A DNA stretch of 64,000 nucleotides from a virus (IMGVR_UViG_3300020161_000678:1232-65231); one strand, 5' to 3'; shown: positions 3,346 through 47,460, numbered from the stretch's first letter. The notes: generated from the sequence alone by a model not told the origin. A program made the numbers and translations.

Positions 3346-4203
3346 CTACCTATAGAATTGAAATGCTTCCACCATCGGTGCTGTTACAGTTATACCTTTG
3401 GTTGCCAAGAACTTTGTTAGCGCAGTCTCGCTGGCATGGTGATATGGAAACAATTCTTCTTCAGAGTAGGAACAAGTCATTCCAGGATATGGTAGCGGTA
3501 GTATCTTTTCTGCCTCAGCTAAATGTTCTTTGTGCTTGACTTTTATCTGTGACAGTTTAAATGGATCAAGCATCATCTTTTTAACAGTCTTGTCACCAAT
3601 GCCTTTGATGCCAGGGAAGTTGTTATGGCTGCCTACCAGTGCTGTATAGAAATTAAAATCTTCAGCTTTAACCGGATAGTATTCTTTAGTAAACAATTCT
3701 TTAGTAAGAAGATATGTTTTACCACCCTTACGTTTGTAGACCATGAAGTTTGGATAAACAAACAATTGGTATAGGTCAGTATCATTTGACGCTACTATGA
3801 TTCTGTCAAACTTGTCTGCATACGTTTTGGTAATGTATCCAATCCAATCATCAGCTTCGTAACCTGTTTCTGACAGTATCGGAATGTTCATCATTTTAAT
3901 GAACTCTTTGCACCAACCTTTGTTGTACGAAAGAGCTTCGTAAAAACCATCAGCATCATCAGACTTCTCACGATCACCTTTATACTTAGAGTAAACTGCT
4001 TCTCTAAAGTACGGACGCTTATCGTCACAGATAATAACATGCTCTGGCTGGACGTAGTTAATCATAGAGCATAACTGAATGACGAACCCGTAGAAGCCAC
4101 CAGTCATTTGACCTCGGTGTGCCAACTCTTTATTGACAGCCATTGACCGCATAAGAGTGTTATTAAAGTCTATCAACAAAACATCATTTGAGATTGCTTT
4201 CAT
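3346..4203 (-). CDS. 5'-3' exonuclease / flap endonuclease (PolI N-terminus / T4 RNase H-like)
   Basis: LLIDFNN, YKGDR, GYEADDWIG, SNDTDLYQL, PGIKGIGDKT (HhH). Confidence 0.9.
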   Translation of the reverse strand: MKAISNDVLLIDFNNTLMRSMAVNKELAHRGQMTGGFYGFVIQLCSMINYVQPEHVIICDDKRPYFREAVYSKYKGDREKSDDADGFYEALSYNKGWCKEFIKMMNIPILSETGYEADDWIGYITKTYADKFDRIIVASNDTDLYQLFVYPNFMVYKRKGGKTYLLTKELFTKEYYPVKAEDFNFYTALVGSHNNFPGIKGIGDKTVKKMMLDPFKLSQIKVKHKEHLAEAEKILPLPYPGMTCSYSEEELFPYHHASETALTKFLATKGITVTAPMVEAFQFYR

Positions 4204-13341: not shown

Positions 13342-15885
13342 TTACTTATAAAAATCAAATGACTTGTGGAGTTTCTTTGGCACTTCTATGAACTCAGTTG
13401 AGCAGAATGTATCTATCTCTTCTTGTTCGTACCAATTTCTGCCATAAGACATCTCGCATGTTAATGGGACATTAAGCCAGGGATAATCCCTGGTGTCGCA
13501 CATTAGTCTGGCAATCGTCATTACTTGTTCTTCAAGCTGATCTTCTGGAATGTACGAAACAATATCGTCATGAACCTGCATGACTGTTTGGATACCAGCG
13601 TCACAAATCTTATTCATGGCATTAACGCAAAGTCTAGCCGCTGCACCTTGAATAGGACTGTTAATTATCTCGTTATAAGATAACGGCCCATGACGTCTGA
13701 AACCCATTAGTGTTTCAACATAACCATGCTCTTTATAGAAGTCCACTAACCACTGTTGCCACTTCTTAATACCTGCGAACACATACCAGAACTCTTCATT
13801 CATTTCTAGCATGATCTCTTTTGGTATCTTCATTGCAGGAGCGATGCTATAAATCGAGCTGCCATAGAACTGAGGAAACGTCCATTGGTTTTTAACATCA
13901 CCACGAAACTTCTTCATGACTTTAGGATCATCAAGAAATTGTTCACCACCAATACGAGCTGGATATGCTTCGGCTATTCGCTTCGCCCAGTCCATATGCA
14001 CATCGTAGTTTTCCCAGACCATTTTACAGTAAGTAGGATCTTGAGTAGCCACCGCTATCAACCTACCTTCAATCTGACCATAGTCCGAACAAACCATGTA
14101 ATGCCCTTCAGGTGCCTTAATAACTTTACGAATGTCTTTGCCTTTACGGTTAGGGAAATTCTGTAAGTTAGGATCAGAACATGAAAGCCTGTTGGTGCTG
14201 GCAAACAGATGGTTGAATGAAGCGTGAATTCTTCCATCAACTGTGTCTGAGTGCTTGAAGATTGGATCAATATATGTTCCTTTCTTCTTAGCAACAGCTC
14301 TGTTTTTCAGCAGCAATGCACCGATGGGATGTTCGATTTTAGATAGCACAGACTCATCAGATGACTCTTTACCATCAACCTTAACCTCATCAGTTAGACC
14401 ACAAATGTTTTTCAAGAACACCAGCACTTGAGATGGAGAATCAATATTGAAATTACCATAGCGAGATTCATACGTCTTAACATCACGCATTGATTTTATC
14501 TCATGCAAAATTTCTTTCAATTCAGCATCGTATTTGTTAAAATACTCTAAAGTGACTTCTTTATCAGGTTCCACACCATTGATTTGAGTTCTTGCTAAAG
14601 TAGAACTTGATCTTATTAAATCAAGATATACGTTTTCTAGTCCCAGTTCCTCGATGATTGCCTTTTGCTTTTTAAACAATAAGTCTGTCCACTTAACGTC
14701 TAAAGTGTTATAAGGCAATATCTCATCGAAAGTGTACTTCTCAAGATCAGATCTATCCAAGTTTGAAATAGCCTTCAGGTTAAAACCAAAGTATTGACGA
14801 ACCAAGAAATCCAAGTTATGAGTTCTCATCAATTCGTTAATAACGTATGCCTGAGCCTGTGAGCAATTCCACTTCCGCCAATCAACCAGTACATCAGGAC
14901 CAAAGAACACACCAGTCCACTCTTGCTCAAATTTGGCGTTATGGCATACAAACTCTTTTACATTTAGGAAAAATGTATGCAAGCGTTCTACCAAACGTTT
15001 CTTCTGAGAAGCTGACCACCATTCACCTTTATATTGAAAAGGAAATGCTATGGTGTAATCATATGTTCCGAACGATAAGGAAAGCAGTCTGCTATCACTA
15101 CGGTATGGACTCAGTTGATTGGTTTCAATATCATACGATACCAAATCAAGTGTCTCAAAATAGTCAAGCCATTTGAAGATTTTTTCAAGATTTTCTTCAG
15201 TAGGCTCTTTAGTCCATTCAGTGTTAGCTATCCTGTCCGCTTTGGTTGGAATCCAAGGCACTGTTGAAAGTTTGAACTTCTCAAGACTTTTGACATGCTC
15301 AAGAAAATAACCATCCCACTCAGTTTCAAACACCTTTTCTTTCTTAACACGTTGTTTAGACATTATGAAAGAAGGGCTGTGCATTGGATATAACCAACAA
15401 GTATGACCACCAATCTTTACTGGAATAAATTTACCAGCATAGTTGCGCTCAGATGATTCGTTTAATACCCAATTAATGGCCTCGCTGCCAACTGCCACAA
15501 TAACCTTTGGCTTGGTCTTGGCAATGTCTGCCTCAACCCGTATCCTGCAACAAGTATATTCAAGTTCTGTAACCGACTTCCTTGAGAAGCAGTTTAAGAC
15601 TGAATTGAATCTTGATCTGTCAAGTGTGTCCTCTCTAAATTTGGACAACATGTATTCCATTTCGTCGCCTTCAAAGTATGAAGATGCATCGTCTTGGTCT
15701 GATGTTGCTCTTGGTAACAGGAAGTAGTAGTCAGGATTATCCACACCTTCAGGAGTCATTTTAGGAGTTGCAACATCTGCCCTATTTAAAGGACAGATCT
15801 TACAACCTAAAAGCTTTGCTGAGTGAAGTGGGAGCTTTGACGAGACTACGGGAACTGCTTCTGAATCTCTAAAGAAAAAGCTCAT
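13342..15885 (-). CDS. polA: Family A DNA polymerase with N-terminal UDG-like domain and 3'-5' exonuclease
   Basis: N-terminus CKICPL...CCR...KPKVIVAVG...HSPSF (family-4 UDG-like); exo YDIET and HNAKFE; pol RLSCSDPNLQNFP, DYGQIEGR, YGS, QVHDDI. Confidence 0.92.
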   Translation of the reverse strand: MSFFFRDSEAVPVVSSKLPLHSAKLLGCKICPLNRADVATPKMTPEGVDNPDYYFLLPRATSDQDDASSYFEGDEMEYMLSKFREDTLDRSRFNSVLNCFSRKSVTELEYTCCRIRVEADIAKTKPKVIVAVGSEAINWVLNESSERNYAGKFIPVKIGGHTCWLYPMHSPSFIMSKQRVKKEKVFETEWDGYFLEHVKSLEKFKLSTVPWIPTKADRIANTEWTKEPTEENLEKIFKWLDYFETLDLVSYDIETNQLSPYRSDSRLLSLSFGTYDYTIAFPFQYKGEWWSASQKKRLVERLHTFFLNVKEFVCHNAKFEQEWTGVFFGPDVLVDWRKWNCSQAQAYVINELMRTHNLDFLVRQYFGFNLKAISNLDRSDLEKYTFDEILPYNTLDVKWTDLLFKKQKAIIEELGLENVYLDLIRSSSTLARTQINGVEPDKEVTLEYFNKYDAELKEILHEIKSMRDVKTYESRYGNFNIDSPSQVLVFLKNICGLTDEVKVDGKESSDESVLSKIEHPIGALLLKNRAVAKKKGTYIDPIFKHSDTVDGRIHASFNHLFASTNRLSCSDPNLQNFPNRKGKDIRKVIKAPEGHYMVCSDYGQIEGRLIAVATQDPTYCKMVWENYDVHMDWAKRIAEAYPARIGGEQFLDDPKVMKKFRGDVKNQWTFPQFYGSSIYSIAPAMKIPKEIMLEMNEEFWYVFAGIKKWQQWLVDFYKEHGYVETLMGFRRHGPLSYNEIINSPIQGAAARLCVNAMNKICDAGIQTVMQVHDDIVSYIPEDQLEEQVMTIARLMCDTRDYPWLNVPLTCEMSYGRNWYEQEEIDTFCSTEFIEVPKKLHKSFDFYK

Positions 15886-29991: not shown

Positions 29992-32550
29992 TTATGCCGC
30001 TTCCCTTACCAACGCTTTAGCCGCATTGAGAGCTTTACCACCGATTGACTTACCCAGTTGTTGAAAAACAACTTCTGGTTGGTCAACCATTTCTTGCAAT
30101 GAATTTATACCCGCAGCTTCAAGCTTTTTAGCTCTTGCTACACCAACACCTGGCAATTTGCAAAACTCAGCCAAGCTTGCTCTAACCCCAAATTTGACAC
30201 GCAAGTTAAGCATATCTAACTCAGTTGACTTACCCCATTCCTTGAGTGAGTCGATCCAATGCAACGCACCAGTGATACGGTCAATATCTGTTTTGATAGG
30301 ACGCGCATACATATGGCTGCCTTGTTGCTCAGTGATGAGATCATACAAGTCGGCAGCTATAACGCTCTGCGTACCAGTGACTTCCTCACCTCTGATTTGT
30401 GGAACACGTTGGCTTATAGCCCAACTATATTCTGCAACCCGTGACTCCTCATTTCTTGGCACATAGTTCAACTGCCAGCTTGGAGTTGTTCCCAACGCAT
30501 ACGAAAGTGCCAAATCACTGTCCCACAAGTTGCGCTCAGTCATTCTGGTAAACATCATAGCCCAGTGATTAACGTCACGCGGATAGTAATACAGTGAAGC
30601 ACTGACTCTGCCCAATGAAGTTATCCGATACTTACCATCTTCGGTAATCACCATCATATTGAGCTTAATCAGTTCTGCAATTACCCCATTGATAAATCTA
30701 TCTTCAACTTTAACTTGCAGCGATGCCAGCGATCTAGTAAACCAGTTCATTAAAGATGGCATATCTTTAACTTCGCCATTAGCGATCTCTGCCAACACAT
30801 GGAAACCCAAGATGTCGGTGTTAATCAGTGTAGACGTAATGTTGCGTGGATTTTTAACTTTGTTAGCCCACATTTGTGGATCATCACATATTAAAAAGCA
30901 CCGACCAATATCTGACTTACCTAAACGACCAGCACGACCAGCCATCTGAATAATATCCAACTCATCAACAGGCTGCATCCCTCTGGTTGTGCCGATGATA
31001 ATTGCATTGACAGCAGATGTGTTGACACCCCATGCCAGTGTGCTTGTGGAGATCAGCACTTTCATTGAGTCCTCTTCATTGGACTTGAATGACTTTTCAA
31101 CACCACCACGATCATCCTTGCCTAAGTCGGCATTGTGGAACGCGCAATTAACACCACGATCTCTAAGCATCGTTTCCATCTGACGACCTGTGTTCTTATC
31201 ATGCACAAACACCAGCGTTTTCTCATGCTGATATTCAAGAACCAAGTCAATAGCAATAGCCAATTTAGATGCTTGTTGTTCACCATAAAATGATCCAGTG
31301 AACTGTCTAAAAAACCATTGCAACTGAGTAGGACGCCAGTTGTTGTTAATCACATTGGTTTCTTTGTCATTGAGATTAGTCAACCATACTTTGAACTCAG
31401 ATACGTTGGGCATGGTAGCTGATAACATCAAAACTCTAGCATCAGGAACCAACTTGCAAAAGCGCATCAATCCAACTTCCACAGCATGACCACGATTAGT
31501 GGAAATAATGTGAGATTCGTCAGTGATTACCAAGCCTACATCAAACAGCCAGTCTGATCTTTCAGACTTGTGGTTGCGTGTTCTGCTATCAATCATTTCC
31601 GATGTTAAACAGATCAGATCAGCTTCGTTAAGCTCTTTAGCCCGTTCTTCGGTCAACGTGTAATCACCAGTCAAAATGCAGATCTTATAATCAGCACCGA
31701 ATGACTCAGACCATTCTTCGTACTTTTCTGAAGTCAAAGACTTTAATGGCGATACATAGCACACTTTCTTTTGATGTACCTTCAAAGTTTCCCAAACGAA
31801 CAGTTCACCTGAAATTGTTTTACCAGTTGATGTGGATGTTCCAAGCACCAAGTTACAGTCTTGCTCCCAGTAACCATGTTGCAAAATAGTAGATTGCACA
31901 CGGTTGAAAGTAGCAAACGGATATTGGTAGTGAGGAAACACTGAAATTGGATACAGTGAATCCTGTTCAACCAGTGGTGTCATATCTTCAATGATACGTT
32001 CTTTTGTTGAAACCAAGTCAACCTGAGACACGCTGGTTATCGCATTGACCAATGGTCTTACTGCATTAAACTCTCTCAAAATATGAGTAGCCTTTGTGCC
32101 GCATTTTGGATACGCACCACAACCCATGAATGGTTGTCTTGTTTTTCCATTAATCCGTTCAAACTGAATCGCACCACATTTTTTGCAGAACGTAAGTTTG
32201 AGCGAATCGTTCATGACCTCCAGCACTCTGCTGGTAATGCGATCAAATACAGTGGTAGCACCTTCAGTGCGTAACACCTTTGGATAAGCTTTAGTTGCTT
32301 TACCAGAAATGGTATCGTACATCACCACTCTTATTGCATCTTCACCGATATCTCGGCTAACACCATCAGGATTGATAGTGGTGTAAACGTGAAGCTCTAA
32401 TGAGCTTTTTGATTTTGTAGGAGCGCAGATAACTAACTCAGCTCCTGAATTTGGTTGCATGATCTTCCATGATTTAAAACCGTTCTCTACCGTTAACGTT
32501 GCGGTTGCCCACGCTTCGGCTTGTTCTCTTGTGATTGTTACGAATGACAT
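29992..32550 (-). CDS. Ski2/Hel308-like DExH helicase with N-terminal topoisomerase-type Zn ribbon and C-terminal HhH
   Basis: CKKCG...FMGCGAYPKC; TSTGKT, DESH, LSAT, STSTLAWGVN, QMAGRAGR; LPGVGVARA. Confidence 0.9.
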   Translation of the reverse strand: MSFVTITREQAEAWATATLTVENGFKSWKIMQPNSGAELVICAPTKSKSSLELHVYTTINPDGVSRDIGEDAIRVVMYDTISGKATKAYPKVLRTEGATTVFDRITSRVLEVMNDSLKLTFCKKCGAIQFERINGKTRQPFMGCGAYPKCGTKATHILREFNAVRPLVNAITSVSQVDLVSTKERIIEDMTPLVEQDSLYPISVFPHYQYPFATFNRVQSTILQHGYWEQDCNLVLGTSTSTGKTISGELFVWETLKVHQKKVCYVSPLKSLTSEKYEEWSESFGADYKICILTGDYTLTEERAKELNEADLICLTSEMIDSRTRNHKSERSDWLFDVGLVITDESHIISTNRGHAVEVGLMRFCKLVPDARVLMLSATMPNVSEFKVWLTNLNDKETNVINNNWRPTQLQWFFRQFTGSFYGEQQASKLAIAIDLVLEYQHEKTLVFVHDKNTGRQMETMLRDRGVNCAFHNADLGKDDRGGVEKSFKSNEEDSMKVLISTSTLAWGVNTSAVNAIIIGTTRGMQPVDELDIIQMAGRAGRLGKSDIGRCFLICDDPQMWANKVKNPRNITSTLINTDILGFHVLAEIANGEVKDMPSLMNWFTRSLASLQVKVEDRFINGVIAELIKLNMMVITEDGKYRITSLGRVSASLYYYPRDVNHWAMMFTRMTERNLWDSDLALSYALGTTPSWQLNYVPRNEESRVAEYSWAISQRVPQIRGEEVTGTQSVIAADLYDLITEQQGSHMYARPIKTDIDRITGALHWIDSLKEWGKSTELDMLNLRVKFGVRASLAEFCKLPGVGVARAKKLEAAGINSLQEMVDQPEVVFQQLGKSIGGKALNAAKALVREAA

Positions 32551-38086: not shown

Positions 38087-39506
38087 CTGAATACCTTCCT
38101 TATCTCATTAATTTTAAAAGTAATACGACCCTTCCAACCCTCATAAACTTTAGGACAGATAACAATTTCATGACCTAAATAGCAATCCGCTTGCAAAGTT
38201 ACAGCACCATCTAAATGTACTGCTCCAAACGCATGTTCTTCAACCACATAGTTGAAAACAAATTCTCTTGTAATACTCTCAGGAAACAGTGCTTCCAATA
38301 TGAGAACTGTTTGAACACCGTTCTCTTTTAGAAGTGCAGCTACTTCCTTTATCTGTTCAGAATACTCACCTAGTATTCTGTCAGTAGTAAATATTGCGTA
38401 AATCATACCTTGTCTCCACCATTACATTAAGCATTGTTTTCTCGTTGTGCTTCAAATATAGCTAATTATATATATTATCAATCACACAAACAAGACTCAT
38501 TTAACAATTGTAGTTACCACTAAACAATGCTTAAAGATATAGTCAAAATTGGCAAGAATCCGGCTGTTTTAGCGGCTTTGATTGTAAAGCCATGCCATTA
38601 CACCAGTATTGAAATAAGCCCGCTTAAAACGGCTTACAGTGAGGGTGAAGGTAATCTGGTCAGGAGTTGCACCTGACTTGCGATCTTGGCAAAATGGTTA
38701 GTTATCGCCTCAACAACCTGCGCTACACTGAGTTCTCACCACAAGAACATAAGCAAGCTCGGCTACCAGTCTGTTTCACTGTCAACAGCGCAGACTACCT
38801 TCAAATCAAAAACTACTTAAACGCTTTAGGCAACGGCATTGGCAGAGTATCGTCACATTTACCATCAGTAAACCGCTTCTGAAAGTCTGCCGTTGTTGCA
38901 CAAGCAATTGTAGACGAGACCGTCGAACACTTTAACTCTACAATCTTTTCACCGCTATCATTAATCAGATCAATCGTAGCCCACCCGTCACCTTGAGGAC
39001 ATGTGTCCTTTATTGACGAATCACCTCTAGCCTTGATTTTTAGATCAGGGTTATAAGTGTTTCTGTAGATAGTAGCGTTGAAAGATGAATTGTCAATCGC
39101 CGTCTGTCGTTGTGCTTCCAATGTTTCAAACGAAACCTTCGGTTGCTCTTGGCAGCCTGAGCATAATGCTGCTATCGTCAATACTACCACAATAGGACTT
39201 AAGAACATTTTTTTCATACTAACCTCATAACATTGCTTTTAGATTAAAGTGAAAGGAGGCATTATCCACGATAAAGACTTTATGGCCTGCAAATGTTATT
39301 GGGCCATTGTTCTCCGCTTGCATAATGTCTCCGAACTGCCGCTGGCATTCTAGAGTTAATGCCTCATTTTTCAACTCCTTGTAAGAGGATCTGTCTAAGT
39401 AAATAAAGAACGGAACATCTGTTCTTTGTGTACTTTTACAGACCTCATCAGTCTCATGCCAAAGCCTTTCAAATACGGTTCTGACTGTCAACATCTTAGC
39501 CACCAC
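38083..39506 (-). other. Hypothetical proteins, including a putative lipoprotein (38813-39217)
   Basis: 38813-39217 has a signal-peptide-like N-terminus with lipobox-like LCSGC and paired cysteines. Confidence 0.5.
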
Positions 39507-41121
39507 AGAACGCTGATATTGCAGCAGGAGTGTTGCTGTCGAAACCGCAGAAGTCCATCATATTTACATCATCAGGATCAGCAATCGTGCAATCATTTAC
39601 TTCCATCGCAACAACAGCAAGCTTCGCATCAGGTTTGTTCATTTTCTTACGATACTCCTTAAGAACACTGACAACGTGTCTGCCCTGATTGACTTCGTTA
39701 TCAGTGTAGATCACGAAACAATCAACATCCAGCTTGTTCTTTAAAGCGTACTCAATGGCTGAGGCGATGTTAGTAGAACCCATTCTGGTTTTATCAATGG
39801 TAGCAATAACCTGCTCTAACGTATCATTCTTGCTGATGTTAAGCTCTGTCACTGAATCTGAGAAACCCATAATGTGGTAGTTTTCTTCAGACTTCATTGT
39901 AACCATTGCCATGACAGCAGATGCCGCTCTTGGTGTGAATCCTGCTAACCCGCCAATACAGTTCCAAGTCATTGAAGATGAAATGTCAAGACATAACAAA
40001 TACTTCTTACCTGTTGGCTCAACGTGTTTGAATGAATAGTAGAACGCTTCATGCAAAGCATCAACGATCTGTTTAACAGGCTGCCAAGTCAATGAGCCTT
40101 TGAATCCATGACCTGATTTATAAGTCAGATATGCAGTAAGTATCTGCATTGGATGGACTTTTGAATTAACTATGTTAAACACTCCACAAATCTGTTTAGC
40201 TATAAAGGCGGTCATGTCATCTAATGGTTTAATAGCTCCATTAGCAGTCATTACACCAAGGTTTCTAAGCATGGCAATGTAAGGCATGTTGTTAATAACA
40301 AGACCATGCCAAACTTCTGGATATGCAAGCCATTTAGTTGGGATCAACTCTCTGTTAGGAAAGTGATACTGCTCAATAAGATCAATAACATCACCAAGAT
40401 CGTCAGCCTGTTTCAACAGCTCAAACCCAATAATGTTGTCAAGATCTCTTTGAGTTTTCAACAACTCCATGTCAACCTGTTTCTTAACAGCCCAGCGCAA
40501 TGCAGTTGAGACCACGTTGGATGTAGGAACTGGTTTGCACAGTCTTAAAACATCTCTATGCGCCCATCCGTTTCTTTGCTGGTACTTAACCAGTTGGTAG
40601 GCAAGATCTCTTGGATCTTTTGAAAGATACCAGTCTTTTAACGCATTGTTGAACAACCGTCCTCGACCCCTGAAATACTTTGAGTATTCCATGAAAGCGA
40701 ACAAATGTGTTCCTATTCTACAGACTTCTTTCAGCTTAGACAACGCATACTTTCTGACATGCGTTTCTTCATTGGAAGCTGCATACGCTAACGCAAAGAT
40801 GCAAGTTTCGTTCTTTATACATCTGGCATTGACTGAGATGTCAACAATCAGATCAATAGCACCGTGATAATTGTCCTTCAGTGCTTGAGTAAGAGCTTTA
40901 ACATTGTCCTTAGTAAGTTTCTTTTCAGAAACATAGTAAGTGCCGCCTTCAGTACCCAACACCAAGAAACGTTCCAACTGTTTAAGAGTTGGTGTTGCAA
41001 ACACAAATCCACCTGTGTTGTTTTCTTTCATGTTCTTGCCTGGTATAGGCTTAGAGACTGGAGTATCTCCGGTGTCTCTTTTATGGTCAATATGATCTTG
41101 AAATTTAAAGGTCATGTTCAA
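39496..41121 (-). CDS. rsr: Ro60/Rsr TROVE-domain RNA-binding protein
   Basis: NNTGGFVF, LERFLVLGTEGGTYY, LVKYQQRNGWAHRDVLRL, MPYIAMLRNLG, vWA MIDAS LDISSSM, IYTDNE, ADPDD..M.DFCGFD. Confidence 0.95.
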   Translation of the reverse strand: MNMTFKFQDHIDHKRDTGDTPVSKPIPGKNMKENNTGGFVFATPTLKQLERFLVLGTEGGTYYVSEKKLTKDNVKALTQALKDNYHGAIDLIVDISVNARCIKNETCIFALAYAASNEETHVRKYALSKLKEVCRIGTHLFAFMEYSKYFRGRGRLFNNALKDWYLSKDPRDLAYQLVKYQQRNGWAHRDVLRLCKPVPTSNVVSTALRWAVKKQVDMELLKTQRDLDNIIGFELLKQADDLGDVIDLIEQYHFPNRELIPTKWLAYPEVWHGLVINNMPYIAMLRNLGVMTANGAIKPLDDMTAFIAKQICGVFNIVNSKVHPMQILTAYLTYKSGHGFKGSLTWQPVKQIVDALHEAFYYSFKHVEPTGKKYLLCLDISSSMTWNCIGGLAGFTPRAASAVMAMVTMKSEENYHIMGFSDSVTELNISKNDTLEQVIATIDKTRMGSTNIASAIEYALKNKLDVDCFVIYTDNEVNQGRHVVSVLKEYRKKMNKPDAKLAVVAMEVNDCTIADPDDVNMMDFCGFDSNTPAAISAFCGG

Positions 41122-41139
41122 TCCTCGTAGGATAAGTGG

Positions 41140-41397
41140 TTAATGTACTTCTTTTTTAGCTTCTTTACAAAATCCGAATAGAGTTACTTCTAGTTCAGCT
41201 TGTATTTTTTCAAGAAAGTCTACGCCTTCATCCTCACCAAGATCAGGCGCACACTCTGCCATAGCGAACATGATTGCAGCTCCGGCAAAGAACGTCATTC
41301 GCAGATCATTCTTTTGAATATCAGACATTGGTTTTGGAAAGACAGTTTCTAAGTATTCCTCAAATTCTGCCTGCACTGATTTAAAAACTTTTGGCAT
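41140..41397 (-). CDS. Hypothetical protein
   Basis: 85-aa ORF with a ...RMTFFAGA motif. Confidence 0.5.
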   Translation of the reverse strand: MPKVFKSVQAEFEEYLETVFPKPMSDIQKNDLRMTFFAGAAIMFAMAECAPDLGEDEGVDFLEKIQAELEVTLFGFCKEAKKEVH

Positions 41398-41748
41398 ATC
41401 AACTCCTATTATTAACTGTTGAGAGCAATGTTTGTGAGCATTCCACTCACAAGTCGGTTAGGGCATACAAAGCCAGCCAGGCTCTTTTAATGGGATTGAT
41501 TACCCAACCATTTCTGGATTGTTTTTCCACGAACTATCGCTGGTTAGGCATGACTAAGAGGATATAGCCTTCCAGCTCATTTCAGGCATTGCAAACCTAA
41601 AATATTTGGGATACTTGACATAGATATTATTTGACATTTAATCTACGCCTGCTTATTCCTCCGCATCCCCAAGAGTGTCACTAATAGTCCAGTCTGATCC
41701 CTACATGTAAGATCATGTCAAGTGCCAGACTAAAGTCAAGAATAGGGT

Positions 41749-41876
41749 TCTCTGCTGGTGGGAATCGAACCCACGACCAACTGCATGGTGGTAACCTTAT
41801 CCATTCAGTCACAAGTGACAAGATGTCTGAATAAGACTTTTGGGCGGTGGCTCTACCAACTGAGCTACAGCAGAGA
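41749..41876 (-). ncRNA. tRNA-like RNA with a Y-RNA-type bulged helix in place of the anticodon arm (element A)
   Basis: Acceptor UCUCUGCUG/CAGCAGAGA, D arm UAGCUCAGUUGGUAGAGC, T arm GUGGGUUCGAUUCCCAC; insert carries GAC[U]GA/UUGUC. Confidence 0.75.
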
Positions 41877-41881
41877 AAAAC

Positions 41882-41939
41882 GGGACAAGTGTTAGCAATG
41901 GAGGTTATTTTAGGCAGATAATCCATAGCGATCAGTCCC
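41882..41939 (-). ncRNA. Compact Y-RNA-like RNA (element F)
   Basis: Terminal stem GGGAC[U]GA/UUGUCCC plus second stem GCUAUGGA/UCCAUUGC. Confidence 0.6.
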
Positions 41940-42060
41940 AAAGAGCTGAGGGTTCTTTAAACTCTTCCCACAAAGACATTTAAAGTTTAAAGTCATTTTT
42001 CTGGACTATTTTTATTGAACAGCGGAGTTGCCATACAGCAGCCTACCGTTCTCAAAATTC

Positions 42061-42166
42061 TGGCTCTCAGGGATGGAGTCGAACCATCAGTCACCTGGCA
42101 AGTCCGGAGATGAAGTCGGACTTGTTGCTTAACTCCGATAATGCGCGTTACCGGAGTGACCTGAGA
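42061..42166 (-). ncRNA. tRNA-like RNA with CCA end and two long hairpins (element B)
   Basis: Acceptor UCUCAGG/CCUGAGA-G-CCA, T arm GAUGGUUCGACUCCAUC, hairpins ACUCCGGUAA/UUAUCGGAGU and CAAGUCCG/CGGACUUG. Confidence 0.6.
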
Positions 42167-42175
42167 ATAACTAAG

Positions 42176-42300
42176 TGTTGTAGGCTGGATTCGAACCAAC
42201 GTTACCCGCTCCAAATGCGATAATCATATCTATTCAGTTCAATAGAACAAGTGAGAAGACATGAACTTTTAGGCGTCCTAACCACTAGACGACTACAACA
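42176..42300 (-). ncRNA. tRNA-like RNA with Y-type insert (element C)
   Basis: Acceptor UGUUGUAG/CUACAACA, D arm UCGUCUAGUGGUUAGGACG, T arm GUUGGUUCGAAUCCAGC; insert GAAC[U]GA/UUGUUC. Confidence 0.75.
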
Positions 42301-42304
42301 AAAC

Positions 42305-42429
42305 TGGCGTTGTGGGCTGGATTCGAACCAGCGACCTTCCCCTTAGCATGGATAATCTTATTCAATCAGCTCTAAGAGCGAGAGGTTGAGTAAGAGTTTT
42401 TGGCTGCTCTACCACTGAGCTACCACAAC
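42305..42429 (-). ncRNA. tRNA-like RNA with Y-type insert and encoded CCA (element D)
   Basis: Acceptor GUUGUGG/CCACAAC-G-CCA, D arm UAGCUCAGUGGUAGAGC, T arm GCUGGUUCGAAUCCAGC; insert GAGC[U]GA/UCGCUC. Confidence 0.75.
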
Positions 42430-42440
42430 ATAATTTAATA

Positions 42441-42507
42441 GAGCAAGTTCCTTGTTTTGGTGTTAAATACAGATTCAAAGTCAGTGATAACCAAAACAAT
42501 TCAGCTC
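42441..42507 (-). ncRNA. Compact Y-RNA-like RNA (element E)
   Basis: Terminal stem GAGC[U]GA/UUGCUC plus stem UUGUUUUGG/CCAAAACAA. Confidence 0.6.
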
Positions 42508-42635
42508 TAAACATAATACTCTCATGAAGCTAATCTTCTATACGCATCAATTGTGACTTTTCTACATACTAGAAAACTTACAAGAGTATTATGTTTAAAA
42601 CTGGTGACACCGTTTCCAGTGTCACCAACTATACC

Positions 42636-45867: not shown

Positions 45868-47460
45868 TGCTAATCTCCCAATTTAATGTCTCGTATATTA
45901 GTTTCTGAAACTCAGATACTAAGTTGTTAGCCGCTACTTCCAAACTTTTTGAAAAGTTGCGCTCGGGACGGCTATACCCGCGTTTACGTTCGTAATTCAG
46001 ACCAGCTATAAAAACGTTTCCATTGTCAAGATAACGTGCTTCAAACCGAATATATTTACCTGGCATCACAAATTCTCTGTTGCCTTTAGTATAAACAGTC
46101 CATCCCTGTTTGATCTTACTTACTTTAAAATCCGCGATATTGAATACAATGTATTCCATCAATCACCTCTTCTGGATCAACTAATTGTTCTGCAGTAACC
46201 TGACGTTTTAAGCCAGGAAGGCTGTTCAGATACTCTTCTTCATTTATCAGAAATCCATCTAAATCTTTTTGTGATTCAAATGATCTGATATACTCATCAA
46301 CCTTTGTAAAACCACATCCTTGTTGAGTAACCTTTATTAAGCACTTCATTGTCTTTCCTTAAAATGGTGCCCCGTCATGGACTTGAACCACGATAAGCAG
46401 ATTATGAGTCTGCCGTACTAACCTTTGTACGAACGGGGCTATTTCCAAGGTCGTCGTGACCACCATTCTGCAATGGCGAACATGACACTAATTCTTTTCT
46501 GTCCAACTATCAAAAACTCGCCTTGTTGCTTCCATAGCTCAAGTCTTGAGCAGTATCCAACAAGCACTTCTAGTTCATCTGAAGCCTCATTCAATAGTTG
46601 TTTAAGATAAACAACATCAGTTGATTCCTCAGAGTGTCTTATCTTGTTAACAAGATCAAGAATTGAGCTATATCTTTCCATTTATTTTCCTTGCCACCAA
46701 GCTTTCGCTATTTCTTCAGCAACTTGCTTGACTATACCTTGGGGTACTTGCGTATATACTTCATTTATTCTGATATACGCTTTAATTTGTCTCAGCAAGT
46801 AATTCCTGAAATTAGGGTAGCTTTGACAATTCTCGAAGAACTTGTAAAGTTCTTTATCAGAGTTAAGCACAGCATCAACTCTGCATGACAGTGCTTCTTT
46901 CATGTTAGCGTTATCAGATTCTATTGACATTTTCTTGATCCACATTAACAGCATAAATGTTTTCTTTACACAACAGAGCCGCTGCTTCTTTGCAGCACTT
47001 CATTGTGACCGTTGATTCCGTTTCTGAAACTATTTCCCAATCACTTCCACAATGCTTTTCGATCTTGCCATAAGCTTCCTTGCTTTTGTAGATCAGCAAA
47101 GTAACTCTGTCTGGTGAAATATGGTTCTTTTCACCACACCAAGGACAAAACCATTCTTTCTTTTCTTCAATCGGTGCATCACCAATACTCCACCATTTTT
47201 CACAGTGGTCACATTGGAAATGTATCAACTTCTCAAGTGAGGTCAACATATACTTTTGCTCCATTTTCATTAAAGTAATGGTCTACTTCATGAGTCTTGC
47301 ACCACTGTTCTGCATACGGTTTTAAACCGCTGCTGTATCTTTCAGTGCTTGCTACAGGACTCAACCTAGTTTCTCCGAATTTGATAGGAGCAAATAGTTT
47401 GTAGATTGCGAACCCTTGTTGATTAACTCCGGTCATTCTAATTTGAACTACTGTACTCAT
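45860..47460 (-). other. Six short hypothetical proteins flanking a tRNA
   Basis: ORF track; 46914-47270 has CDHC/CPWC Zn-ribbon motifs. Confidence 0.5.
46365..46439 (-). tRNA. tRNA with CAU anticodon (Ile2- or Met-type)
   Basis: Full cloverleaf GCCCCGU/ACGGGGC-A-CCA, anticodon arm GCAGA-CUCAUAA-UCUGC, T arm CGUGGUUCAAGUCCAUG. Confidence 0.88.

Follow-up and report, generated by a model that had tools for sequence, protein, structure and literature searches.

The 64,000-nucleotide (nt) stretch of DNA analysed here (IMGVR_UViG_3300020161_000678:1232-65231; hereafter the window) covers most of a 65-kb viral record of IMG/VR that is estimated to be 44% complete. It contains a gene for a Ro60 protein, with TROVE and vWA domains, and upstream of this gene an array of five small RNA elements, designated A, C, D, E and F, which share one structural module. 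All features of the locus lie on the minus strand. In the order of transcription they are the terminator hairpin of the upstream gene, E, D, C, a further tRNA-like element (B), F, A, a non-coding stretch of about 200 nt, an open reading frame (ORF) of 85 amino acids (aa) and Ro60 (Table 1). We consider it likely that this is a phage Ro60/Y-RNA locus in which five partner RNAs carry the same docking module, mounted in two different ways: in E and F it would form the ends of plain Y RNAs, and in A, C and D (the hybrids) it would be built into a tRNA body.

To judge from sequence comparison, the ORF at 39496-41121 encodes a full-length Ro60, consisting of the TROVE ring domain and the C-terminal vWA domain. 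Pfam recognises vWA_Ro60 (5.6e-51) and TROVE (6.7e-34) in it, and the comparison with PDB gave full-length matches to 9nen (4.6e-103), to frog Ro60 (1yvp, 2.6e-101) and to Deinococcus radiodurans Rsr (2nvo, 9.4e-80). P0001 is an identical protein of 539 aa. A search for cultured close relatives, made with megablast and blastn against 50,697 phage records, returned no match for the region.

Table 1. Features of the Ro60 locus in the order of transcription; the bulged base of each docking helix stands in square brackets, and L007 is a related viral locus
Feature	Position	Strand	Description	Bulged U	Docking helix
Hairpin followed by U run	42597..42626	-	end of the upstream gene; read from the sequence; L007 has an analogous hairpin and AGUUUU
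TATTAT box	42513..42518	-	-10-like; a few nt ahead of the first base of E; read from the sequence
Y RNA E	42439..42509	-	about 71 nt; terminal bulged helix, 9-bp upper stem, GGUUAUC	42503	UAGAGC[U]GA / UUGCUCUA
Hybrid D, type II	42305..42429	-	design like that of C; loop AUGCUAA; ends in G-CCA	42368	UCGCUC-uua-GAGC[U]GA
Hybrid C, type II	42176..42299	-	full cloverleaf with the module between nt 28 and 29	42236	UUGUUC-uauu-GAAC[U]GA
Element B	42061..42166	-	CCA-ended and tRNA-like; perfect acceptor stem and T arm; two long hairpins replace the D and anticodon arms
Y RNA F	41881..41940	-	about 60 nt; terminal bulged helix, upper stem, GAUUAUC; GUUUUU end	41934	UGGGAC[U]GA / UUGUCCCG
Hybrid A, type I	41750..41874	-	Y module in place of the anticodon loop; no encoded CCA	41807	UUGUCA-cuug-UGAC[U]GA
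Conserved non-coding stretch	41410..41614	-	about 200 nt; downstream of hybrid A and ahead of the 85-aa ORF; aligns with L007 1888-2082
85-aa ORF	41140..41397	-	function unassigned; between the RNA array and Ro60; from the ORF list
Ro60 gene (TROVE + vWA)	39496..41115	-	539 aa counted from ATG; the mechanical ORF call begins at TTG 41121

One docking module in five RNAs

The five elements that carry the module all lie within 41750-42509. The module has three parts: a helix of the form 5'-UUG-NNN / NNN-C[U]GA-3' with a bulged U; an asymmetric internal loop of 4-5 nt leading into an upper stem of 8-9 bp; and the motif GRUUAYC, which follows immediately after the upper stem at a fixed spacing. 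While the NNN positions vary among the elements, their complementarity is always kept, and in all five the 4-6 bases preceding C[U]GA are complementary to the bases after UUG (UCG in D). The invariant core consists of the U-A and U-G pairs beside the bulge together with the adjoining G-C. In each element the nine nucleotides past GA pair at 7-8 of 9 positions with a segment located 4-5 nt 5' of the UUG strand. A MAFFT alignment lost its register in the upper stem, and this part was tested with a script comparing cognate and non-cognate strands: across all collected modules, cognate strands pair at no fewer than 8 of 9 positions in 14 of 34 hybrids (41%), as against 3.6% of non-cognate combinations.

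The motif CTGA-N8-GRTTAYC occurs six times in the window, whereas shuffled sequences give an expectation of 0.11. Five of the six occurrences fall on the minus strand at 41790-42504, a span of just 715 bases. On these statistics, taken together with the covariation, a chance origin of the module was rejected. The sixth occurrence (32023-32041, plus strand) is antisense to an ORF for an 852-aa helicase (29992-32550, minus strand), lacks a partner strand and is probably a chance match.

The two mountings differ in where the partner strand is found. In E and F it lies 50-60 nt downstream, and the docking helix is closed by the ends of the RNA; in A, C and D it lies directly upstream, and a loop of 3-4 nt joins the two strands of the helix. 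An earlier note, made from the sequence of this DNA alone, had claimed that the five elements share a covarying bulged helix, that a second stem and GRUUAYC follow it in each case, and that in E and F the helix is formed by the RNA ends; on all these points our results agree with it. The Rfam consensus for Y RNAs reads GGUC[C]gA-N8-GGUUAu ... ACUuGACU, and both its spacing and its two strands equal those of the phage module. E and F therefore look, in sequence and predicted pairing, like animal-type plain Y RNAs with a U in the bulge. L007 has a near-identical ortholog of E as well as an ortholog of F.

The U bulge noticed earlier proved to be a property of a whole lineage. It is present in all six members of a Ro60 clade with 100% support (the window and loci L007-L011), and outside this clade it was found only in L015; the remaining loci have C at this position, like animals.

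tRNA bodies that carry the module

In A, C and D the units follow one another as acceptor 5' strand, D arm, module, T arm and acceptor 3' strand. Within each unit the acceptor stem is paired at 7 of 7 positions, and the features of a tRNA elbow are present, namely GG in the D loop, a GGUUCGAnUCC T loop, U8 and C48 in the variable loop. The R1 covariance model scores A, C and D at 117.8, 113 and 116.1 bits, respectively, and the Rfam tRNA model (RF00005) matches A at 47.8 bits, well over its threshold of 29, with an insert of 58 nt. All three are thus tRNA cloverleaves; for C and D this rests on covariation and on the ARAGORN calls obtained once the insert was taken out. What they do not have is an unbroken anticodon arm whose anticodon is the same in orthologs; the insert measures about 58 nt, and the loop triplets differ.

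The hybrids come in two types. Hybrid A has an uninterrupted 5-bp anticodon stem (ACCGC/GCAGU), which covaries among A-type orthologs and whose C29.A41 mismatch is kept in them. In hybrid C the anticodon stem is split (CC+CGC / GCG+GG) and bears the loop AUUUGGA; the discriminator is A and CCA is not encoded. G-CCA is found exactly at positions 73-76 in D, L007_D, L007_C and L009_D. We anchored the insertion site on pairs 27:43 and 28:42, which follow the D arm and covary strongly (CG, AU, UA and GU types). In 20 of 38 viral hybrids the 13 bases directly preceding nt 42 fold into 3 bp with a 7-nt loop, compared with 0-9 of 38 in other registers, and U33, A37 and A38 are each present in 19 of those 20. 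Read in this way, C and D are complete cloverleaves in which the module interrupts the 5' strand of the anticodon stem at 28/29, giving a three-way junction. The earlier note had described A, C and D as normal-topology tRNAs with a loop-capped module, D having an encoded CCA, and so far it is borne out, the topology by an intra-unit acceptor pairing of 100% in 43 viral sequences. Its further statement that the module replaces the anticodon arm applies just to A, and there to the loop; in C and D the split 5-bp stem and the 7-nt anticodon-like loop are retained.

None of A, C and D was called by ARAGORN on the intact window. More generally, of 38 hybrids the program called none when intact and 35 once the insert had been removed in silico (for type I sequences these calls carry no weight, given the program's tolerance of poor stems). 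Excision at 28/29 restores a textbook cloverleaf with U33 and R37, as would be expected if C and D, and perhaps A, were true tRNA genes with a removable insert that yield both a decoding tRNA and a free Y-type RNA. Archaeal tRNA introns, too, can occupy the anticodon stem. Even so, we find this explanation highly improbable. Orthologs with nearly equal bodies differ in their 'anticodons': D carries GCU in the window but GUU in L007 and L009, and the UUG of C in the window corresponds to GUC in L007. Since the triplets drift in this way, the loop seems to be kept for its shape and not for decoding. The GCU loop of D comes without a long variable arm, which tRNA-Ser needs, and many bacterial hybrids among the matches listed join G3:U70 and A73 to non-alanine loops. 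On reading the sequences, no bulge-helix-bulge pairing was seen at the borders of the insert, and 58 nt is far below the size of a group I intron. Finally, the replication genes in the window (PolA, a DnaB-like helicase, a RecA-like protein and an ATP-dependent ligase) are of bacterial type, and no splicing endonuclease has been reported in bacteria (bioRxiv 10.1101/312249).

The evidence for this anatomy is comparative, with covariation covering the acceptor, D, T and docking helices. Across an alignment of ten hybrids (the window plus three relatives), 92% of cells are paired and 18 of 27 pairs show compensatory changes, while slid registers leave only 32-47% paired. The covariance model built from these ten recovered 43 distinct viral hybrids; in their alignment, which was fitted to the model, 98.3% is paired, 21 of 24 pairs are compensatory and the acceptor strands of the same unit always match. 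Among the matches listed, 111 bacterial sequences reach 99.2% of cells paired. One variant of the design was seen in locus L009 (2498-2608, plus strand): it has an acceptor stem of 8 bp and a T arm, a plain hairpin in place of the D arm, and a Y module that runs directly into the T arm.

The hybrids are related by permutation to YrlA, the tRNA-like Y RNA of bacteria and phages. Locus L012 contains, at 3777-3897, a YrlA-like RNA scoring 42.5 bits. It starts with the docking strand and an upper-stem strand, GUUA and a 3-bp hairpin with a 7-nt loop, continues with nt 42-43 and the variable loop, the T arm and a 7-bp acceptor hairpin closed by GAAA, and ends with the D arm, nt 27-28, an upper-stem strand and the UCG-docking strand. 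Part for part, this RNA reads as an exact circular permutation of the C/D design, with the docking helix open and the acceptor stem closed. The identical parts and order of this RNA, the normal topology of A, C and D and the solitary position of A uphold the earlier proposal that the three are un-permuted versions of YrlA.

D and C, being neighbours, might instead encode together a single circularly permuted YrlA, with an 'acceptor' hairpin made of the 3' strand of D and the 5' strand of C. Such an RNA would consist, in order, of the 3' half of the D module, the T arm of D, the acceptor hairpin, the D arm of C and the 5' half of the C module. The Rfam YrlA model (RF02553) does align over the D/C junction (42242-42363), but this match across two units, its best, has a score of 18.7 bits against a threshold of 69. 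The strands in question can pair at 6 of 7 positions, and the minimum-free-energy fold of the dimer forms the hairpin; within units, however, acceptor pairing is 7 of 7 everywhere, whereas between units it falls to 5 of 7 in L007. A YrlA match in L009 (2559-2661, 34 bits) likewise spans the T arm of the variant and the D arm of the next hybrid, and neighbouring strands pair at 6-7 of 7 positions in 22 of 45 bacterial tandem pairs among the matches listed, the register being mis-set in about one third of the matches. Yet G-CCA at 73-76, found in D, L007_D, L007_C and L009_D, would be left unexplained in a hairpin loop, and both modules are closed by a perfectly matched helix of their own (GCUC/GAGC for D, GUUC/GAAC for C). 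Moreover, A and its orthologs stand without an adjacent unit as pairing partner; because A is solitary, a permuted RNA made of two adjacent units is not available to it. Overall, we regard a permuted D-C dimer as quite unlikely.

Several observations weigh against the interpretation of these elements as Ro60-bound Y RNAs. Their bulged base is U, at a position where nearly all other Y RNAs keep C, and binding by this particular Ro60 is accordingly assumed from clade-wide conservation only. The Rfam Y_RNA and YrlA models remain below threshold on all five elements, and Y_RNA gave no match at E <= 10 on E or F. Alignments A5 and A8 were fitted to the model, which favours pairing. Single-sequence folds are little more stable than those of shuffled sequences (z-scores of -1.4 to -2.7), and the fold of the D+C dimer is ambiguous. 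Since thermodynamic folding is weak or ambiguous here, we relied on the comparative evidence.

Linkage to Ro60, distribution and surroundings

Relatives of the locus were reached through Ro60 homologs of 53-67% identity. They keep the array in identical order, and Rfam gives long 'tRNA' matches with inserts there. In the window and in L007-L011 the array is on the same strand as the TROVE gene and directly upstream of it. According to the covariance model, hybrids are present in many of 80 viral Ro60 loci, scattered over most clades of a quickly built Ro60 tree, and strict pattern scans added another 30 viral stretches. TROVE is encoded elsewhere in the genome in three of the five hybrid-bearing viral records checked (both of those at least 90% complete and one at 86%). 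A rough sorting of 83 sources into topology classes by regular expressions, indicative only and including noise away from Ro60, counted hybrids in 26, plain Y RNAs in 69 and YrlA-like RNAs in 22. The Ro60 loci of the actinophages Faust, LinStu, Cashline and Phosso gave no strong hybrid match, only ordinary tRNAs and weak matches of 20-22 bits.

The hybrid design is not specific to phages; it also occurs beside bacterial rsr genes, mainly in Nostocales. A scan of prokaryotes, with one genome per species, yielded at least 120 stretches, and among the matches listed most belong to Nostocales, Longimicrobium, Armatimonadota and Chloroflexota, with Deinococcus lacus in addition. There are at least 112 long model matches in at least 56 bacterial loci; among the matches listed, TROVE lies within 8 kb in 48 of 56 loci and U33 is present in all 74 of 74 hybrids. 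A feature of its own is the pair G3:U70, which 36 of 109 bacterial hybrids (L127-L206, among the matches listed) possess, mostly those of Nostocales and usually together with A73 and an encoded CCA. Their loop triplets, such as GCC, AGG and GUC, are not those of alanine. This combination of G3:U70 with A73-CCA resembles the alanine identity set of transfer-messenger RNA (tmRNA) and suggests that such hybrids may be charged by alanyl-tRNA synthetase.

Within the array itself, element B (fold z-score -3.06) was considered as a sixth member and rejected, as the CUGA-N8-GRUUAYC module is missing from it. It gave no match to the R1 model and has no counterpart in L007. A comparably odd tRNA-like RNA is found in L008 at 3629-3724 (R1 score 26.7 bits). 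The non-coding stretch downstream of A has invariant cores, GGCUAUAUCCUCUUAGUCAUGCC and GGUAAUCAAUCC, and RNAalifold finds 26 pairs in it, 6 of them compensatory. It gave no Rfam match; it may represent a leader of the Ro60 mRNA or an additional RNA. The 85-aa ORF between this stretch and Ro60 has no Pfam match, no counterpart of it was called in L007, L008 or L009, and it looks like an insertion in this phage.

On the upstream side, the hairpin and U run close the preceding gene, so the RNA array should begin a new transcript. The TATTAT box, for which L007 has TTTTAT at the equivalent position, is a candidate promoter for the array; a consensus promoter and terminator scan reported nothing at the box and was uninformative, with 2 promoter-like sites against 3.0 expected. 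Farther away, the sole ordinary tRNA of the window is a tRNA-Met(CAU) with an encoded CCA, called by ARAGORN at 46365-46439 on the minus strand. A family A DNA polymerase (13342-15885, minus strand) has an N-terminal region similar to uracil-DNA glycosylase (Pfam UDG, 1.3e-05), followed by 3'-5' exonuclease and polymerase domains.

Processing, possible roles and comparison with known RNAs

Taking these results together, the hybrids are most likely Y RNAs that are bound by Ro60 and processed as tRNAs. The array would be transcribed as one or two transcripts and cut in the manner of a tRNA operon, with RNase P acting at the 5' ends of D, C and A and thereby also creating the 3' ends of E and F. 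Trimming at the 3' side and CCA addition would come after RNase P. Such processing is suggested by the tight spacing of the units, about 9 nt between E and D, 5 nt between D and C and about 7 nt between F and A, and in Mycobacterium smegmatis YrlA is known to be cleaved by RNase P and to gain CCA in vivo (PMC4201824). Ro60 would dock on the bulged helix of every RNA; the loop that caps this helix in the hybrids should not hinder binding, because classical Y RNAs have free termini at this place. The tRNA body would then act as a stable and correctly processed handle, offering a free acceptor end, a tRNA elbow and an anticodon-like loop, and through it the Ro60 particle could meet tRNA-binding factors of the host or the phage.

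The layout of the locus is also compatible with a pure processing scaffold. The tRNA bodies might mainly be punctuation and stabilisers, so that processing at A, C and D frees and protects E and F, and nothing else is recruited. Indeed, E and F each end a few nucleotides ahead of a hybrid, the order in L007 is equal, and in relatives plain Y RNAs are likewise flanked by tRNA-like units. However, processing by itself does not explain why every hybrid has a full covarying docking module, why U33, R37 and A38 are kept while the three middle bases of the loop drift, or why, in near-complete genomes, solitary hybrids stand at a great distance from both TROVE and plain Y arrays. We therefore look on punctuation as an unlikely account of the hybrids and prefer to see them as tRNA-processed partners of Ro60.

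What these partners do is a matter of speculation. As already put forward in the earlier note, they could tether Ro60 to tRNA enzymes or serve as decoys for anticodon nucleases. A bolder version, which we would advance only as a long shot, holds that the free-ended hybrids act as tRNA impostors: they would undergo processing, receive a CCA tail and, in some lineages, be charged with an amino acid, and they would display a generic anticodon loop while bringing Ro60 to host proteins that handle or cleave tRNAs, for example as decoys or traps for anti-phage anticodon nucleases, and tandem hybrids such as D-C would represent the 'dimeric tRNA' ancestor of permuted YrlA. Two phage systems provide a background for such ideas. 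The Ro60 of Thermus phage phiLo binds Y-like RNAs encoded upstream of its gene; it engages the host polynucleotide phosphorylase (PNPase) and, with those RNAs, attenuates it (PMC12135203). In phage Bas63, a Ro60-like protein has been reported to counter the defence system ppl (PMC11482910). If this way of countering defence holds more widely, the RNAs of the window may be specificity factors of the protein.

What is new here is an unpermuted counterpart of YrlA, present in three copies, two of them in tandem, beside plain Y RNAs: a new wiring of a known kind of RNA. It points to the free acceptor end and the anticodon-like loop as functional parts of some Ro60 particles. In the literature searched, which covers subscription papers only in part, we found no description of the free-ended hybrid form. 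tRNA-like Y RNAs have been described as circularly permuted tRNAs with neither a free CCA end nor an anticodon loop, and an origin from a dimeric tRNA has been speculated upon (bioRxiv 10.1101/312249). As the unpermuted form is found here and the exact permuted form in a relative, the question of origin becomes testable by comparison. The original survey of YrlA dropped matches overlapping tandem tRNA genes (PMC4201824), a filter that would have hidden arrays like the one in the window. The design is widespread, being present in many uncultured phages as well as next to the rsr genes of Nostocales and further bacteria, and so an entire class of RNA escapes tRNA finders and annotation pipelines.

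YrlA is the closest known system (RF02553; PMC4201824; bioRxiv 10.1101/312249). It too is encoded beside Ro60/rsr, and its docking strand is followed by a T arm, an acceptor stem, a D arm and elbow nucleotides. In YrlA, however, the order is circularly permuted, so that the docking helix is made by the two termini and the acceptor stem is sealed into a hairpin; in A, C and D the termini lie free in the acceptor stem, and it is the docking helix that a loop caps. YrlA has been described as having neither a free CCA end nor an anticodon loop, while D encodes CCA and both C and D have a 7-nt anticodon-like loop. In addition, the published YrlA motif GNCGAA has C where the RNAs of the window have the bulged U.

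The likeness to metazoan Y RNAs (RF00019) concerns the layout of their Ro60-binding end. They have the same two-strand bulged helix (GGUC[C]GA / CUUGAC, compared with NNNC[U]GA / CUUGNNN), an upper stem and GGUUAU 8 bases past GA, and their topology is that of E and F; the phage protein scores about as well on solved Ro60 structures (9nen, 1yvp) as on any other solved structure. Unlike them, the RNAs of the window are encoded by a phage, have a U bulge and form a tRNA-like operon in which three of the five are placed inside tRNAs. The Yrn1/Rsr/PNPase system of D. radiodurans (RYPER) and the phiLo Ro60 with its Yrl1 and Yrl2 (PMC12135203) share with our locus Y RNAs that adjoin Ro60, but there the docking helix is at the RNA ends, and no complete free-ended tRNA cloverleaf has been described.

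A further parallel is tmRNA, in which an acceptor/T domain resembling that of a tRNA, its CCA end free, is likewise fused to a large domain of another kind, and whose G3:U70 and A73-CCA recur in many bacterial hybrids. In contrast to tmRNA, hybrids have a true D arm and linkage to Ro60 and are without an mRNA-like reading frame or a link to SmpB, and the three in the window are without G3:U70. The tmRNA family itself exists in a standard (one-piece) and a permuted (two-piece) gene order, which makes it a precedent for the pair formed by hybrids and YrlA.

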